Source of the DNA: an uncultured Candidatus Saccharibacteria bacterium
Lineage (GTDB): Bacteria; Patescibacteriota; Minisyncoccia; Phycocordibacterales; WO2-35-19
Assembly: GCA_964455485.1 (NCBI GenBank)
Contig: CAYVXT010000003.1
Span: 1-41,298 of the forward strand
DNA length: 41,298 nt
Direction: 5' to 3'
Position 1 is the first letter of the stretch; each line of letters begins with the position of its first letter. A program made the position numbers and the translations under genes. The notes below the pieces were generated by a model, which did no database searches, had not been told where the DNA came from, and saw only the letters and a list, made by a program, of their open reading frames with translations. Positions 38,038 to 41,298 of this stretch are shown here, in pieces.

Positions 38038-38110
38038 TCCGCGGTAGCTCAGCTGGTAGAGCGGCGAGCTGTTAACTCGTTGGTCGTAGGTTCGAATCCT
38101 ACCCGCGGAG
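38038..38110 (+). tRNA. tRNA-Asn (anticodon GTT)
   Basis: Acceptor TCCGCGG/CCGCGGA plus G, anticodon loop CTGTTAA, T-arm GTAGG-TTCGAAT-CCTAC. Confidence 0.9.
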
Positions 38111-38159
38111 CCGTTAGCATAAATAGTCGTGATTTTTATCACGGCTATTTTGCTATTAC

Positions 38160-38291
38160 GGCTCCTGCGGGAGAAAGTGCTTTGAATAGCACTTTCGTTA
38201 GGATTCGAAAACCGGAGCGCGACGGCGCGAGGTGGGGTCGCATAAATTTTCAGCAGAAAATTATATGTGACCGAATCCTGCTCCCGGAGCA
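38160..38291 (+). ncRNA. TEC-Asn-S: short tRNA-end-capped element
   Basis: GCTCC(TGC)GGGAG, hairpin AAAGTGC...GCACTTT, GTTAGGATTCGAA, CGGAGCGCGACGGCGCGAGGTGGGGTCGC, hairpin AAATTTTC-AGCA-GAAAATT, then GTGACCGAATCCTGCTCCCGGAGCA. It is co-linear with TEC-B. Confidence 0.55.
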
Positions 38292-38295
38292 AAAC

Positions 38296-38324
38296 TTGAC
38301 ATAATCGTCCAATTGTTATATTCT
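38296..38324 (+). promoter_or_regulatory. Promoter abutting the TEC 3' end
   Basis: GGAGCAAAAC, TTGACA (38296-38301), then an AT-rich -10 (TATATT/TATTCT). A GGGAGG SD precedes the ATG at 38344. Confidence 0.55.
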
Positions 38325-38343
38325 TTTGCATGGGAGGTTCTAT

Positions 38344-38751
38344 ATGGACGCGCTACAAATTCGTTCTCTTTTGGCGGGACTTTGCTTTGGTATTTGGCCT
38401 CTTCTCATGCAAAGGAGTGGGCTGACTGGCAATCTCTCATCTTTCGTTTTCACCGCAATCGTTCTGGTCTGCGTTACCCCATTTACCTTCGGTAATGTTG
38501 GTAATCTGACAAACGCAAATTGGATGATTGCGATTGTCGCAGGAATTTTCGGAGGCATAGGCGTCATGTCATTCAATGGCATGCTCGCTAAAGCAACATC
38601 CCAAAATGTCAGTTCTCTATTCGTGCTGATGATTGTGGTACAGACATCAATACCTGCAATCTACAACATCACGCAGAATGGTGGAATGACGGCAACCAAA
38701 GGTCTCGGGTTCATTCTTGCCATCGTAGCAGGGATACTGCTGACAAAATAA
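38344..38751 (+). CDS. Small four-TM membrane protein (single EamA/SMR-like module?)
   Basis: Start moved to MDALQ behind GGGAGG. The ORF is 135 aa with four hydrophobic helices. Confidence 0.55.
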   Translation: MDALQIRSLLAGLCFGIWPLLMQRSGLTGNLSSFVFTAIVLVCVTPFTFGNVGNLTNANWMIAIVAGIFGGIGVMSFNGMLAKATSQNVSSLFVLMIVVQTSIPAIYNITQNGGMTATKGLGFILAIVAGILLTK

Positions 38752-38761
38752 GGAGAAACAA

Positions 38762-38953
38762 ATGCTCATTGATGATTTTAAAGAAGGGGAAATGGTTCGT
38801 ATTACCGACATAAGGTCGGTATATTACGGACAAATCGGTGAGGTAGACCGCGAAGGCAAAACTGGTGGACTTTACATAAAACACTCGGATGGACAAGTCG
38901 TCTATCACCCATGGGGTTTTGAACGTGTATCCGCGACCACACCAAAAGACTAA
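38762..38953 (+). CDS. Hypothetical 63-aa protein
   Basis: AAGGAG SD, followed by the terminator CCGCC...GGCGG plus TTTTCTTTT. Confidence 0.5.
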   Translation: MLIDDFKEGEMVRITDIRSVYYGQIGEVDREGKTGGLYIKHSDGQVVYHPWGFERVSATTPKD

Positions 38954-39017
38954 TCCGCCACCGTGGCGACGAAAAGAAATCGTCGGCTTCGGTCGGCGGT
39001 TTTCTTTTATTTTAAAC

Positions 39018-39329
39018 AAGTTCTAACATCCTCTATTAAGCGGAGCTCGTAAAAATCTTAGGTCGTCAGAAATGACGGCCTTTGATTTTTTGAGCTCCGT
39101 GGAGCGACTGAACTGCTTCAGTCGCGTGTAGGATTCGAACGGCGGAGTATAAAATTTTGAGCACAAAATTTTTCGAGCCGGTGCCCAGACCAAAAATTTG
39201 TGACTGATAAATTTTTGAGTCGAGGGTGAGCTTGGGGCGGGACCCAAGTGCAAGACTTATTGAGACTGAACAAAGTGAAGTCCAATAAGTGGACAGCTTC
39301 TGTAAGAAGAAATTCCTACCCGCGGAGCC
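39018..39329 (+). ncRNA. TEC-Asn-L: long tRNA-end-capped structured RNA with a 5' extension
   Basis: It starts with AAGTTCTAACATCCTCTATTAAGCGGAGC. The stretch 39093-39329 is co-linear with TEC-Tyr-L. GTAGGATTCGAAC (39128-39140) is the reverse complement of GTTCGAATCCTAC in tRNA-Asn. The last 16 nt (39314-39329) are identical to tRNA-Asn 38097-38112. Confidence 0.65.
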
Positions 39330-39334
39330 AATAC

Positions 39335-39362
39335 TTGACAATATACTAAGGATTAGTATAAT
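39335..39362 (+). promoter_or_regulatory. Near-consensus promoter TTGACA-N16-TATAAT abutting the TEC 3' end
   Basis: TTGACA at 39335-39340 and TATAAT at 39357-39362. The ATG lies only 9 nt after the -10, so the mRNA is leaderless or nearly so. Confidence 0.65.
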
Positions 39363-39371
39363 TTAATTAGC

Positions 39372-39569
39372 ATGTTACAAGTTCACATCAGCACACGGGA
39401 TAATACCGTCCGCATCGAGTGCGAGTGCGGAAGTGGTGCCACAACCATTAAAATGCAGAACTTTCAGGACGCAGAAGCCTCTGCGTACTGTAGTTGTGGC
39501 AAGGAATACAGGTGTATCTCCTCTGGGGACAATACATCTGTGTACCGTATACACAACAAATCAAAATAA
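39372..39569 (+). CDS. Hypothetical Cys-rich 65-aa protein (CxC...CxC)
   Basis: ORF with ECECG and CSCG pairs, followed by a terminator ending in T-runs. Confidence 0.5.
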   Translation: MLQVHISTRDNTVRIECECGSGATTIKMQNFQDAEASAYCSCGKEYRCISSGDNTSVYRIHNKSK

Positions 39570-39679
39570 CAAACCGACCTTTTTTGAAGACTGCCTCCTG
39601 CAGACTCAAGCGAGGCGGTTTTCTTTTTTTATACGAGTTCTGAAGTAGTTTGAAAATAATACATTCCTAAAATCCCAGA

Positions 39680-39755
39680 AAGTTCTAACTCTCTTTTAAT
39701 TACAGTCCAATTAGCGGTTCTGAATGCGTCCAACTTGTGGAGCCAAGTATTGACT
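39680..39755 (+). repeat. Internally deleted TEC copy with its attached promoter
   Basis: AAGTTCTAAC-TCTCTTTTAA, then AGTCCAATTAGCGG (compare GTCCAATAAGTGG in the core), then TGGAGCCAAGTA-TTGACT. TATAGT follows 16 nt later. Confidence 0.5.
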
Positions 39756-39846
39756 TTTGTAGCAAGTAATATATAGTGTTAGGAGACCTTCGTTTTTCTT
39801 TGTGAGAGACGGGGTACTTCATGTGTCCTTGGGACAGGAGAAGTGA

Positions 39847-40341
39847 ATGAAATTGAAAAACGCATACGAGACGTTCGAGTCGGAGCCGTGGCTGAGGGAG
39901 ATTCTCTACCGAGTATCCCAAGCGTCCTTGGCTCCCAACTTCGACAAATGGCTTGAACGAGACGTTCGGTCCATCAGCTTTTATCAGTTTTCGCAACTTG
40001 ATTTGAACTCTACCTACAACCTCCAGTTCTTCGATTACAACATGACTGGTGAGTGGAAAAGAGAGGTCAAGTTCTGGACTGAATACCTCATCGTCTACAA
40101 AGACGAGTTCGGCAATCAGAATTTCCAGGCAGTTAGCGACAACGTGAATGGGTTGCCTCTCGAGAAGCGCACGACAGTTGCAAAAATGATTTCTGCAATC
40201 GCCAAACGGCGGACCAAGGAGCAGACCATCTTCGTTGCTATTCTACGGCGCAAGGTGCTTCAAAGCGTTTCGAGCGACTTCGGCACTCTCCAATCTTTCG
40301 ACATCTTCAAGTTTCCCGAAGGCTGGCAACTGCCAGCCTAG
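39847..40341 (+). CDS. Hypothetical protein (GC-rich cassette)
   Basis: AGGAG SD, 164-aa ORF, followed by the terminator GGGCGAC...GCCGCCC plus TTTTCC. Confidence 0.6.
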   Translation: MKLKNAYETFESEPWLREILYRVSQASLAPNFDKWLERDVRSISFYQFSQLDLNSTYNLQFFDYNMTGEWKREVKFWTEYLIVYKDEFGNQNFQAVSDNVNGLPLEKRTTVAKMISAIAKRRTKEQTIFVAILRRKVLQSVSSDFGTLQSFDIFKFPEGWQLPA

Positions 40342-40402
40342 AAGGCTCTGAAGGGCGACCCAACTCGGGCCGCCCTTTTCCTTATCTAAACCCCTACAAA
40401 AC

Positions 40403-40441
40403 AAGTTCTAACATCCTCTATCAAACGGAGCAAATTTGATA
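40403..40441 (+). repeat. Solo junction scar of TEC fused to a promoter -35
   Basis: AAGTTCTAACATCCTCTATCAAACGGAGCAAATTTGATA. The sequence is what a deletion between the two CGGAGC repeats of a full TEC-Asn-L would leave. Confidence 0.5.
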
Positions 40442-40482
40442 AATTTATAAAGTGTTATAGTATTCAACACAGGATAGAACAA

Positions 40483-40836
40483 ATGCTCACTGACGCGCAG
40501 GTTGTAACAATCTTCGAAGAGGCGCTTAAGAAGGGCGAGGAAACAAGCAGGTGGGATCTCAGTTACCTTCTTAAACAAACATGTGTTCAGATGGGTCTCA
40601 TCGATGCTAAAACCGAGTATTCTCCCCTAGTAGAGTGTCTAGTGAAGTCAATCGAAGCAGCCACTCAACGAAGTTTTATTGTAGTGGAACTGAGGCGATT
40701 AGGCCCCGAGGCAACAAAAACGGCCTTGCAATTAAGTGTCGCTTGGGCAAGGATGCAAATCCTGAGAAATCAACTGAGCGAGATGTTCACTAAGGGACAT
40801 CAAGCCAGAGAAGCTATACAACGCTCGTTAGTCTAA
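40483..40836 (+). CDS. Hypothetical helical protein (GC-rich cassette)
   Basis: 117-aa ORF followed by the terminator GGAGCCCGCC...GGCGGGCTC plus TTCATTTTT. Confidence 0.55.
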   Translation: MLTDAQVVTIFEEALKKGEETSRWDLSYLLKQTCVQMGLIDAKTEYSPLVECLVKSIEAATQRSFIVVELRRLGPEATKTALQLSVAWARMQILRNQLSEMFTKGHQAREAIQRSLV

Positions 40837-40957
40837 CCAATGTTTTTGAATTTGCAGGGCTGCCTGCATCCCATTCATATGGAGCCCGCCTGCACGACCG
40901 GCGGGCTCTTCATTTTTATTAAACAACTTCTCCTTCGATCTTAAATTTCTCAGGACA

Positions 40958-41021
40958 GGTAACATCCTCCTCGCCCGTACCGAACGCGGTTCGGTACGTT
41001 CGGGCGGGTATCAAACGGAGC
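40958..41021 (+). repeat. Junction scar interrupted by a GC-rich nested palindrome
   Basis: GGTAACATCCTC, then CTCGCCCGTACCGAACGCGGTTCGGTACGTTCGGGCGGG, then TATCAAACGGAGC. Confidence 0.45.
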
Positions 41022-41065
41022 AAAGTGATTATTCAAAAAATACCTCATATGAGAGGTATTTTTTG

Positions 41066-41090
41066 TGACCTCAGACTGGATTCGAACCAT
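41066..41090 (-). repeat. Orphan tRNA 3'-end fragment in inverted orientation
   Basis: The reverse complement reads TGGTTCGAATCCAGTCTGAGGTCAC, which is T-loop, 3' T-stem and acceptor strand. No 5' half is present. It abuts TTGACA-N17-TATTAT (41090-41118). Confidence 0.45.
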
Positions 41091-41143
41091 TGACATAACA
41101 TGCTGTGAGTGATATTATTTAGTCAGATAGAAAGGAGTTCTGC

Positions 41144-41266
41144 ATGACAAAATGGACCATCGGCAACCGAGAAATTACAGTCGACGAAACGTTGATGCGG
41201 TTTACCTCGAGCACGCCGTGGCTTGCGTCGGAAATTGACGCCCTGCAGCTACTGTGGTCAGTGTGA
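41144..41266 (+). CDS. Hypothetical 40-aa protein (GC-rich cassette)
   Basis: AAAGGAG SD 6 nt upstream. It translates MTKWTIGNREITVDETLMRFTSSTPWLASEIDALQLLWSV. Confidence 0.4.
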   Translation: MTKWTIGNREITVDETLMRFTSSTPWLASEIDALQLLWSV

Positions 41267-41298
41267 AGCATTGAGAGAATCACTGCCAACTGCATCGC

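Follow-up and report, generated by a model that had tools for sequence, protein, structure and literature searches.

The window analysed here is a chromosomal stretch of 41,298 nt (contig CAYVXT010000003.1, deposited under an uncultured Candidatus Saccharibacteria bacterium) from a Parcubacteria-like bacterium with a low G+C content (GC, ~38%). It carries eight tRNA genes and encodes housekeeping products such as ClpB, TopA, ParB, MiaA, Dus, SerRS, IF-2, RelA and DprA. Close to its right end, a gene for tRNA-Asn(gtt) (38038..38112, + strand; ARAGORN and Rfam, 72 bits) is followed by an array of cassettes with small open reading frames (ORFs) and by copies of a structured element that also occurs behind many other tRNA genes. 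For this element we keep the name TEC, given in an initial annotation of the window, and its parts are read 5' to 3' on the strand of the tRNA.

A TEC module is ~190 nt long and falls into four parts, the first of which is a hairpin spacer that is often terminator-like. The second part consists of a segment seg1, a 25-nt hairpin module H1 (loop CUGC) and a segment seg2; in reverse complement, seg1 corresponds to the acceptor 3' strand plus discriminator and seg2 to the T-stem 3' strand plus T-loop, and together they form an inverted copy of the last ~22 nt of the tRNA, split by H1 (the spacing from seg1 to seg2 is 25 nt in most units). The orientation of seg2 is antisense and not sense, as tRNAs with asymmetric T-loops show: behind a tRNA with the T-loop TTCGATC, seg2 carries GGGATCGAA, and there are many like cases. 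A three-helix core follows as the third part (P2, H2 with the loop AGCA, GGUGCCCAGACC, H3 and GAGUCGAGGG), and the fourth, O_R, repeats in direct orientation the tRNA sequence that begins with the last T-loop base and ends with the discriminator. A single long interrupted palindrome is made up of the tRNA 3' end, the spacer and seg1/seg2.

Behind tRNA-Asn all units lie on the + strand. The last 16 nt of the gene (O_L, TCCTACCCGCGGAGCC, 38097-38112; repeat family D1/D3) are the sequence that is copied downstream. Next comes a terminator-like, A/T-flanked hairpin spacer (38113..38159), recognised in the sequence and in the general spacer analysis, whose stem runs on into the pairing between tRNA 3' end and seg1 and within which a terminator-like match also lies on the minus strand (38143-38128). 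A short TEC module occupies 38160..38292 (covariance model R1 38171-38278, 32.6 bits, E=7e-8; repeats D3 and D7), with seg1 GGCTCCTGCGGG (38160-38171), H1, seg2 TTAGGATTCGAA (38198-38209), then CCGGAGCG, the AGCA-loop hairpin and a degenerate tRNA-end copy CGAATCCTGCTCCCGGAGC (38272-38290). Cassette 1 (38296..39013) extends from a promoter (38296-38324) through two ORFs (38344-38751, weakly EamA-like, and 38762-38953) to a terminator (38976-39003) with its T-run, and is closed by a site O', AAACAAGTTCTAACATCCTCTATTAAGCGGAGC (39014..39046; repeat D4, GTTCTAAC enrichment), which copies, in degenerate form, the T-arm and acceptor 3' strand of tRNA-Asn. A second hairpin spacer (39047..39091, terminator-like at 39060-39081 plus T-run) opens the long TEC module (39092..39333; R1 39102-39233, 126 bits, E=3e-34), in which seg1 GAGCTCCGTGG (39092-39102), H1 with its CUGC loop and seg2 GTGTAGGATTCGAAC (39126-39140) precede a P2/H2/P3/H3 core ending at 39233, a lineage-specific extra of ~80 nt with three hairpins (39234-39310) and an exact tRNA-end copy plus CCA (39314-39331). 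Cassette 2 (39335..39629) comprises a perfect-consensus promoter (39335-39362), an ORF for a Cys-rich protein of 65 aa (39372-39569) and a terminator (~39592-39629). It is followed by a degenerate junction (39630..39745; repeats D1 and D16) that contains GAGTTCTGAAG, AAGTTCTAAC (39680-39689), the scaffold remnant CAGTCCAATTAGCGG (39703-39717) and a diverged tRNA-end copy, TCCAACTTGTGGAGCC plus A (39729-39745), and where the R1 scan gave no significant match.

Cassette 3 (39750..40398) has a promoter (39750-39777), a conserved 5' untranslated region (UTR), a 164-aa ORF (39847-40341) and a terminator (~40353-40380), and its O' site (40399..40431; repeats D4 and D9) is joined straight to the next promoter, without a TEC. 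Cassette 4 (40436..40957; promoter 40436-40463, 117-aa ORFan 40483-40836, terminator 40888-40906 plus T-run) ends in an O' site (40958..41021; repeat D9) that is split by a palindrome. This nearly perfect palindrome of 39 nt (CTCGCCCGTACCGAACGCGGTTCGGTACGTTCGGGCGGG, 40970-41008) may represent either a very small insertion element or a duplication able to form a hairpin. The array end (41022..41298), which continues past the window end, shows a hairpin (41034-41065) and, joined to a promoter (41090-41118), a T-loop antisense fragment (TGGATTCGAACC, 41077-41088); a 40-aa ORF (41144-41266) comes last.

The ORFs listed behind tRNA-Asn in the initial annotation are all present on the + strand, the first unit holding two of them, and its description of co-oriented, self-contained promoter-ORF-terminator units bounded by sites resembling the tRNA-Asn 3' end is supported. 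Indeed, each unit associates a sigma-70-like promoter and small GC-richer ORFs with a GC-rich hairpin terminator and T-run. Promoter-like sites are located 20-100 nt 5' of each ORF group, with consensus scores of 10/12 (38296), 12/12 (39335), 10/12 (39750), 9/12 (40436) and 11/12 (41090), and their fusion to a tRNA-end-like sequence reads GGAGC(C)A-N-TTGAC as claimed, except at 40436, where the -35 box is TTGATA and not TTGAC. The total of promoter-like sites (8 vs 4.7+/-2.4 in shuffles) is not significant as a count alone, and it is their placement, rather than their number, that carries the weight. The cassette ORFs are richer in GC (44-53%; 39-66% at third codon positions, GC3) than the rest of the window (38%), at values slightly under the 47-55% reported before.

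The 33-nt repeat AAACAAGTTCTAACATCCTCTATYAARCGGAGC links the O' sites at 39014-39046 and 40399-40431 (94% identity), and its tail TATCAAACGGAGCAAA has exact copies at 40419 and 41009; a repeated site ending in CGGAGC is confirmed at both places and, split by the palindrome, at 40958-41021. GTTCTAAC has 5 copies in the window vs 1.4 expected, 4/5 of them at the 3' ends of cassettes in the two islands (Asn and Tyr), and the tRNA-Asn 3' end recurs, exactly or nearly so, at 38272-38290, 39314-39329 (16/16) and 39729-39745. A TEC had been thought to occupy every junction; this holds for the two where R1 finds it (38171-38278 and 39102-39233) and not for the remainder of the five, the other three holding TEC remnants or only O'. 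The segment 40399-40441, previously taken for the scar of a deletion between CGGAGC repeats, does fit such an event, but a junction that never received an element fits equally well.

TEC is a structured single-stranded nucleic-acid element, as compensatory changes exceed both shuffled and slid-partner controls. Across 101 distinct sequences, aligned by fitting to the model, standard pairs fill 94.8% of cells vs 65.4% in shuffles, whereas sliding the partners by 1-3 columns leaves 36-47% pairing; changes on both sides occur at 34/37 pairs, and cells with double changes number 1010 vs 266+/-13, none of the 500 shuffles reaching the observed values. An independent MAFFT/RNAalifold analysis of 30 sequences returned the same helices, with 3-5 pair types per position. 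The long Asn TEC folds at -99.9 kcal/mol (z=-7.8) with seg1/seg2 paired with O_R, and the tRNA-Tyr TEC reaches z=-6.6. Unpaired bases of the core are deeply conserved (GGAG, CGAG, GGUGCCCAGACC, GAGUCGAGGG and the loops CUGC and AGCA). In the alignment fitted to the model, G.U outnumbers A.C on the tRNA's strand (71 vs 25 cells, wobble pairs making up ~2%), and therefore that strand would be the one that folds, as RNA or single-stranded DNA; in the strand test on 30 sequences the two counts were equal (G.U 12 vs A.C 12), and the closing helix likewise gave no strand signal.

Some structural details vary between copies. The commonest H1 loop, CUGC (45/101), is complementary to the commonest H2 loop, AGCA (47/101), in alignment A9, and one locus (L026) displays a possible co-change of the loops, UCGGAA with UUCCG; H1 and H2 may form a loop-loop (kissing) contact, for which the covariation support is ambiguous. 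An optional small hairpin, GAUAAGCGUACUCGCGGU, lies between the core and the tRNA-end copy in loci with different tRNAs and from different samples (among them L026, L034, L053, L055 and L106), whereas the two long TECs of the window instead have in common the ~80-nt insert with three hairpins. Judging from the sequences, such subfamily features appear to cut across tRNA type.

The element is not peculiar to this array or to tRNA-Asn, but represents a widespread family of uncultured bacteria that accompanies nearly all kinds of tRNA and is usually found solo between a tRNA and ordinary housekeeping genes; about half of tRNAs carry one. The search pattern GTGCCCAGACC-N15-40-GAGTCGAGGG matched at least 120 metagenome contigs (loci numbered as L001 and so on), of which about four are chance matches in high-GC DNA, and the family counts given below rest on the matches listed. 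A same-strand tRNA end lies ~90-135 nt upstream in 90/126 listed matches, the remainder being mostly at contig edges, and the tRNA-end copy after the core shows in most cases 0-1 mismatches to the last ~15 nt of the local tRNA. The tRNAs concerned are those for Glu, Asn, Arg, Trp, Gln, Met, Ser, Tyr, Lys, Pro, Thr, Leu, Gly, His and Val, and transfer-messenger RNA (tmRNA) is also used. A TEC located behind a tmRNA gene (L065 5762-5960) copies the tmRNA 3' end; the element therefore treats tmRNA like tRNA. Model R1 yielded 138 matches in 100 loci and nhmmer 142 matches, with 94 of the latter at most 120 nt behind a same-strand tRNA or tmRNA, 14 further back in tandem, 15 at contig edges and 18 after a protein cassette and a degenerate tRNA 3' half. 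The core identity is practically the same for one tRNA on different contigs (0.65) and for different tRNAs (0.64), and reaches 0.88 within one contig, a suggestive value that rests on only 5 within-contig pairs; cores do not group by tRNA type, and no sign of vertical per-tRNA lineages appears in their sequences. The promoter fusion is found in only 2/108 TECs with a strict pattern and is thus rejected as a general feature of the element, being restricted to cargo-bearing arrays.

At gathering threshold, Rfam recognised only tRNAs, and permissive scans of both islands (Asn and Tyr) gave only weak chance matches. The core pattern had 0 matches in 2.9 million viral contigs, TEC had no match in phage or plasmid collections, and literature searches with the core motifs as text and on related topics found nothing relevant. 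The TEC family is apparently undescribed, being absent from Rfam and from the literature searched. The exact 21-mer GAGTCGAGGGTGAGCTTGGGG from the long TEC gave only chance matches, in high-GC coding regions, among viral contigs and GTDB genomes. As to identity, the tmRNA 5' motif, an H/ACA-like pocket, TIGR (tandem interspersed guide RNA), group II intron domain V, the hammerhead core and a dif-like arm were all set aside because of misfits in sequence or context.

Within the window, the R1 scan found six copies, distributed over four tRNAs; each lies 3' of its tRNA and in the same orientation. Behind tRNA-Tyr (8452-8540, + strand), a long and then a short TEC occupy 8541..8962, with R1 matches at 8584-8716 (94.7 bits) and 8855-8962 (22 bits, + strand); the long one ends in TCCTGCCCGGCGCAC at 8794-8808. 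Of the sequence behind tRNA-Tyr, ~150 nt are ~90% identical to 39175-39310, yet end in the tRNA-Tyr 3' end and not in that of tRNA-Asn. The cargo of this island (9621..11900, + strand) has a promoter at 9821-9848, O'-like sites at 9684-9712 (with GTTCTAAC) and 11864-11892, and four GC-rich ORFs (9871-11616, + strand; GC 46-58%) for which Pfam, PHROGs and PADLOC gave no match. The whole island (8541-11900) follows the same grammar as the Asn array, with two TECs, a low-GC ORF of 222 aa, GTTCTAAC-type sites and orphan ORFs attaining 58% GC and 76% GC3. On the minus strand, shorter relatives lie behind tRNA-Leu(taa) (1000..1161; R1 1011-1132, 44.7 bits), where the module closes with an exact copy of the tRNA 3' end, and behind tRNA-Leu(tag) (597..777; R1 642-733, 27.4 bits). 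On the 5' side of tRNA-Leu(caa) (19402-19483), positions 19290-19375 (+ strand) hold a copy of the tRNA 5' end GCCGGAGTGG, an H1-like hairpin AAAAAGCAAACTGCTTTGCTTTTT and, further on, CTCTGGCA, a tRNA-like mini-structure with a borderline R1 score (E=0.024).

The repeated segment runs from the last T-loop base to the discriminator and measures 14-17 nt in 44/56 units, boundaries that correspond to the layout of T-loop-type integration sites in tRNA genes. CCA follows the downstream copy in 11/52 units and the TEC-bearing tRNA gene itself in 1/52, and TEC-free tRNA genes in 11/84. Read most simply, this makes the downstream copy the original end of the gene, displaced by a unit that brought in the present tRNA 3' end and its hairpin. 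In islands inserted in tRNA genes (tDNA islands), a regenerated target and a displaced fragment likewise mark the island ends, according to the Islander description (PMC4383910). An excess of CCA after the downstream copy was rejected as evidence for an RNA origin, TEC-free tRNA genes carrying CCA at a similar rate.

Units vary between strains and organisms. A second organism, from another sample, has the same array architecture (L013): this contig starts in tRNA-Asn and continues with two TECs, a nucleotidyltransferase cassette, an O' fused to TTGACT, a homologue of the 164-aa protein (69% identical) and a DUF2103 cassette, so that the 164-aa cassette sits among neighbours unlike those in the window. 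Homology of cassette 3 with this contig covers promoter, 5' UTR and ORF through the terminator and AAGTTCTAA. In a further locus (L085), tRNA-Gln is followed by two TECs that enclose 1.5 kb of cargo and have an identical core but different seg1/seg2. Strains with identical tRNA-Lys present the unit order A-B vs B-C-A', strains with identical tRNA-Glu and first TEC differ in their second and third units, and arrays of the type cassette, O', hairpin and TEC were seen at about 10 further loci. Array units thus behave as modules that are reshuffled between strains and species. An AT-rich insertion of ~140 nt is present inside a TEC unit in some strains only (L058 and L108 vs L034, second unit behind tRNA-Glu); it is bounded by the inverted repeats TCCCCACACC/GGTGTGGGGA and resembles a miniature inverted-repeat transposable element (MITE).

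Pfam scans of the larger ORFs in the window uphold the earlier statement that neither an integrase nor an attC-type site is visible: no integrase, transposase or reverse transcriptase was found in its 41 kb. Among 298 ORFs that flank TECs (~0.7 Mb; 150 within 3 kb downstream of TECs and 148 of 230-520 aa from the same loci), where the neighbours are housekeeping genes, no recombinase family appears more than once, and IS110-like, TnpB, IscB and Nop-domain proteins were found neither in the window nor among these 298 ORFs. The sole recombination-related protein in the window is DprA (an ORF matching PF02481). DprA is a single-strand-DNA recombination mediator of natural transformation, and would be of interest if folded single-stranded DNA were the substrate.

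As for the cargo, the 117-aa protein of cassette 4 has no homologue among 5.8 billion proteins, and the 164-aa protein of cassette 3 has a single one (P0122, 69% identity), its AlphaFold model being unusable (mean predicted local distance difference test score 52). For the tRNA-Asn cassette proteins, Pfam, PHROGs and PADLOC gave nothing beyond the weak EamA match in cassette 1. On the upstream side, tRNA-Asn adjoins a bla-like (beta-lactamase-like) gene (GC3 26%) whose nearest relatives, proteins from Parcubacteria and Taylorbacteria metagenome-assembled genomes, are only 50-57% identical; at the locus of one such relative (L011) there is no tRNA-Asn and no TEC. Extension of the contig recovered only a 1.3-kb Logan fragment, the 117-aa, 40-aa and bla-like proteins not being on record.

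We tentatively favour, with a confidence that stops a little short of even, an integron-like accretion in which a trans-acting recombinase adds units to tRNA 3' ends, with the TEC fold as its cis-acting site. The 3' flank of tRNA-Asn would then be a gene-capture array, produced as unit after unit inserted site-specifically at the tRNA gene's 3' end, and the same process would have operated at tRNA-Tyr and, in simpler form, at many other tRNAs. Each unit would bring a replacement tRNA segment, from the last T-loop base to the discriminator, usually with a hairpin terminator for the tRNA, and the former 3' end would be displaced downstream as a non-functional copy, either O_R or a degenerate O'; all units would end in a tRNA-end copy of the same direction because each insertion displaces the previous 3' end downstream. 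Units would be of two kinds, namely ORF cassettes, composed of a promoter, one or two small and probably foreign ORFs, a terminator and a pseudo-T-arm site of the GTTCTAAC type, and ~190-nt TEC modules, in which the inverted copy would pair with the direct copy around the core and yield a duplex mimicking the tRNA gene 3' end. This fold would serve as a recognition or attachment structure in cis, comparable to the integron attC or the folded attP of CTX, for a recombinase encoded elsewhere in the genome and acting in trans. Recombination would take place between T-loop and 3' end, and the active form would probably be the single-stranded fold; an excised circle would join the unit end ...CGGAGC to the unit start AAATTTGATA.

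This proposal builds on the observed anatomy of the units, the TEC family and its covariation, the match between copies and local tRNA, the reshuffling of units and the lack of a linked recombinase; the foreign composition of the cargo also counts for insertion. Several points weigh against it. The 41-kb window contains no integrase, transposase or reverse transcriptase and no such family recurs in the 298 flanking ORFs; neither an excision junction nor a circle or empty site has been seen. With ~190 nt, the unit would make a very small double-stranded circular intermediate, and the O' site of the ORF cassettes has no partner in inverted repeat. To change to a new tRNA, the inverted and the direct copy would have to be altered in concert, for which no mechanism is shown; the conserved unpaired core bases and the excess of G.U suit RNA no less than folded DNA; and homologous recombination between 15-nt repeats could also give the reshuffling. 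A bolder version, which we consider possible and rather on the unlikely side, would make TEC the central cis-acting part of a hitherto unrecognised gene-capture system in Candidate Phyla Radiation (CPR) bacteria, a programmable folded RNA or single-stranded DNA working with an unlinked enzyme and retargetable to any tRNA. The folded nucleic acid would display both strands of the tRNA gene 3' end and direct small self-expressed cassettes behind the tRNA, which, if true, would amount to an integron-like platform without integrase or attC.

Part of the same evidence would suit a TEC that is mainly a structured non-coding RNA from the tRNA 3' trailer, its ends imitating the cognate acceptor/T-stem helix and its 5' segments being antisense to the tRNA 3' half; such an RNA could act in tRNA metabolism, for instance by regulating processing, CCA addition or charging or by serving there as a decoy, and the ORF cassettes would be unrelated insertions using the spare tRNA-end copy. 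The strong covariation, the conserved unpaired bases and loops, the predominance of G.U over A.C, the constant position of TEC 3' of and co-oriented with the tRNA, its usually solo occurrence next to housekeeping genes and the CCA after some 3' copies are all in line with this, and 13/36 spacers have no T-run, so that co-transcription is possible. However, the other 23/36 look like intrinsic terminators between tRNA and TEC, and no separate promoter is present. Units that are present, absent or reordered in close strains would be odd for an essential partner RNA, and cores not clustered by tRNA type, TECs that bracket foreign cargo and the occupation of only about half of tRNAs also speak against it; we regard the RNA explanation as unlikely, if worth keeping in mind. 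It is improbable, in our estimation, that TEC encodes a guide RNA for an unlinked recombinase, like the IS110 bridge RNA or dual-guide systems, with antisense segments pairing with the top strand of the tRNA gene and the sense copy with the bottom strand to program insertion. TEC does combine a structured scaffold with variable, target-matched segments that represent both strands of one 15-22-bp target, it sits at cassette junctions, and retargeting to more than 15 tRNA types and to tmRNA would be easy to explain if pairing set the specificity. On the contrary, no IS110-like, TnpB, IscB or Nop-domain protein accompanies it in the window or the 298 flanking ORFs, no equivalent of a donor-binding loop is present, the guide-like segments pair together over ~18 bp and would need opening, and neither Rfam nor the literature provided a match.

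We give a comparably low probability to arrays made of decayed integrase islands or prophages stacked in tRNA genes in the manner of tycheposons, with TEC as an attP arm and the integrase past the window. Partial tRNA repeats in a tandem layout are indeed found in tycheposon islands, tmRNA is also used, the cargo is of foreign composition and the array runs on past the window end. However, the core pattern occurs in 0/2.9 million viral contigs vs at least 120 metagenome contigs, phage and plasmid collections gave no match and no integrase recurs near the about 120 listed TECs; moreover, units of 0.2-0.7 kb with intact promoters and terminators are not gene debris, and base-pair covariation is unexpected for protein-binding arm sites. 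Still less can be said for a small retroelement, similar to a short interspersed element (SINE), copied via RNA and owing its tRNA parts to reverse transcription of tRNA 3' ends, which we judge very improbable: the copied end, from about position 58/60 to 73 and sometimes with CCA, recalls the regeneration of retroviral primer-binding sites, and the tRNA trailer and inverted copy form a long palindrome as from snap-back synthesis, but the frequency of CCA does not exceed that of TEC-free tRNA genes, a linked reverse transcriptase was not found, and there is neither poly-A nor any target duplication besides the tRNA end. Finally, an assembly chimera, mentioned from the start as a possible refutation, was not borne out. 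The junctions are repeats that might have been collapsed or wrongly joined, and a Logan contig breaks inside one of them; yet this independent contig (L001) shows 100% identity over 39244-40534. Because its identity extends across three junctions, the joins are no product of the assembler, and matching architecture occurs in many unrelated samples, which leaves the artefact scarcely credible.

Two features of the window stand apart from the TEC islands. An RNase P RNA of bacterial class A lies at 186-553 (+ strand) with 84 bits, and was missed in the default scan because this score is under the Rfam gathering score of 100; the match suggests a divergent RNA of CPR type. A GC-rich (~47%) intergenic stretch at 32734-33075 (+ strand), with a TTGACA...TATACT promoter and a terminal hairpin with T-run, had no Rfam match at E<=0.01 and contains no tmRNA according to ARAGORN; it is a candidate non-coding RNA of a new kind.

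In CPR bacteria, genomes are tiny and few mobile elements have been recognised, but gene flux is seen at strain level. If the favoured accretion by a recombinase acting in trans is true, it would let small expressed genes be acquired and shuffled at tRNA loci without a linked recombinase, and could account for part of this flux and for many orphan genes. Whatever the mechanism, TEC is an abundant, covariation-supported element tied to tmRNA and to tRNAs of at least 16 amino-acid specificities; the R1 model may be used for genome-wide profiling, and the element possibly embodies a new principle of tRNA-gene recognition. If guided by pairing, it could constitute a compact programmable insertion system.

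Among known systems, tDNA islands insert in the 3' part of tRNA or tmRNA genes, regenerate the target and leave a displaced partial tRNA at their far end (PMC4383910), and in the tycheposons of Prochlorococcus later insertions push earlier ones outward and foreign cargo is carried (bioRxiv 10.1101/2020.12.28.424599). Similarly, a regenerated tRNA end and displaced partial copies flank the units here (38272-38290, 39314-39329, 39729-39745 and O'). However, tDNA islands and tycheposons are kilobases long with their own site-specific integrase at one end, and tycheposons also carry replication genes, whereas the present units measure 0.2-0.7 kb, have no linked integrase, occupy about half of tRNAs and include a structured module. 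An integrase of the kind that defines tDNA islands was found neither in the window nor in the 298 flanking ORFs, the distal end of the array lying outside the window, and a prophage attP is not indicated either, the sequence being absent from the phage and viral genomes searched.

Integrons and integrase-less clusters of attC sites (CALINs) consist of co-oriented single-gene cassettes, each closed by a recombination site, attC, which is built from inverted repeats and probably folds single-stranded. The array likewise has co-oriented cassettes with a closing site, and the same cassette recurs in different arrays. Unlike in integrons, no IntI lies beside the array, a bla-like gene being found upstream of the tRNA instead; no attC with R''/L''/L'/R' boxes is present, the cassettes ending in a GTTCTAAC...CGGAGC pseudo-tRNA 3' half without an inverted partner; each cassette has its own promoter-like site and terminator, whereas integron cassettes are promoterless and depend on a common Pc; and the place of attI is taken by the tRNA gene 3' end, with a folded module separate from the ORF cassettes. 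The initial comparison with integrons or with tandem accretion at a tRNA attachment site holds for the modular units and does not extend to the defining features of an integron.

In CTX-type elements and the pdif modules of Acinetobacter the recombinase is not borne by the element but is the host XerCD, and in CTX two inverted site copies fold single-stranded and imitate the chromosomal target. Their target is dif, unlike the tRNA genes used here, no dif-like XerD arm was seen in TEC, and the TEC core is conserved and covarying, unlike the CTX and pdif sites. The IS110 bridge RNA is a structured scaffold with short segments complementary to the strands of the DNA target. TIGR-Tas uses a dual-guide RNA with 9-nt spacers flanked by box C/D motifs (PMC12045711). 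TEC shares with bridge RNA, seekRNA and TIGR a scaffold with segments complementary to both target strands. IS110, IS1111 and TIGR RNAs lie beside a protein gene, whereas TEC has no adjacent protein and its target-matching parts pair together; no DEDD recombinase adjoins it in the window or flanks, and its architecture differs from that of TIGR-Tas, with no Nop-domain protein in the flanking ORFs. Like tRNA-like domains (of tmRNA, mascRNA and viruses), TEC ends pair as an acceptor/T-stem-like helix, sometimes with CCA; unlike them, TEC has no T-loop and instead a core of ~100 nt, its pairing runs through the discriminator, and no Rfam clan matches. The system thus falls outside the definitions of bridge-RNA and TIGR systems, and also outside those of integrons and tDNA islands, because it has no linked integrase, no attC and cassettes with their own promoters; in its working, it is tandem tDNA islands and integron arrays that it resembles.

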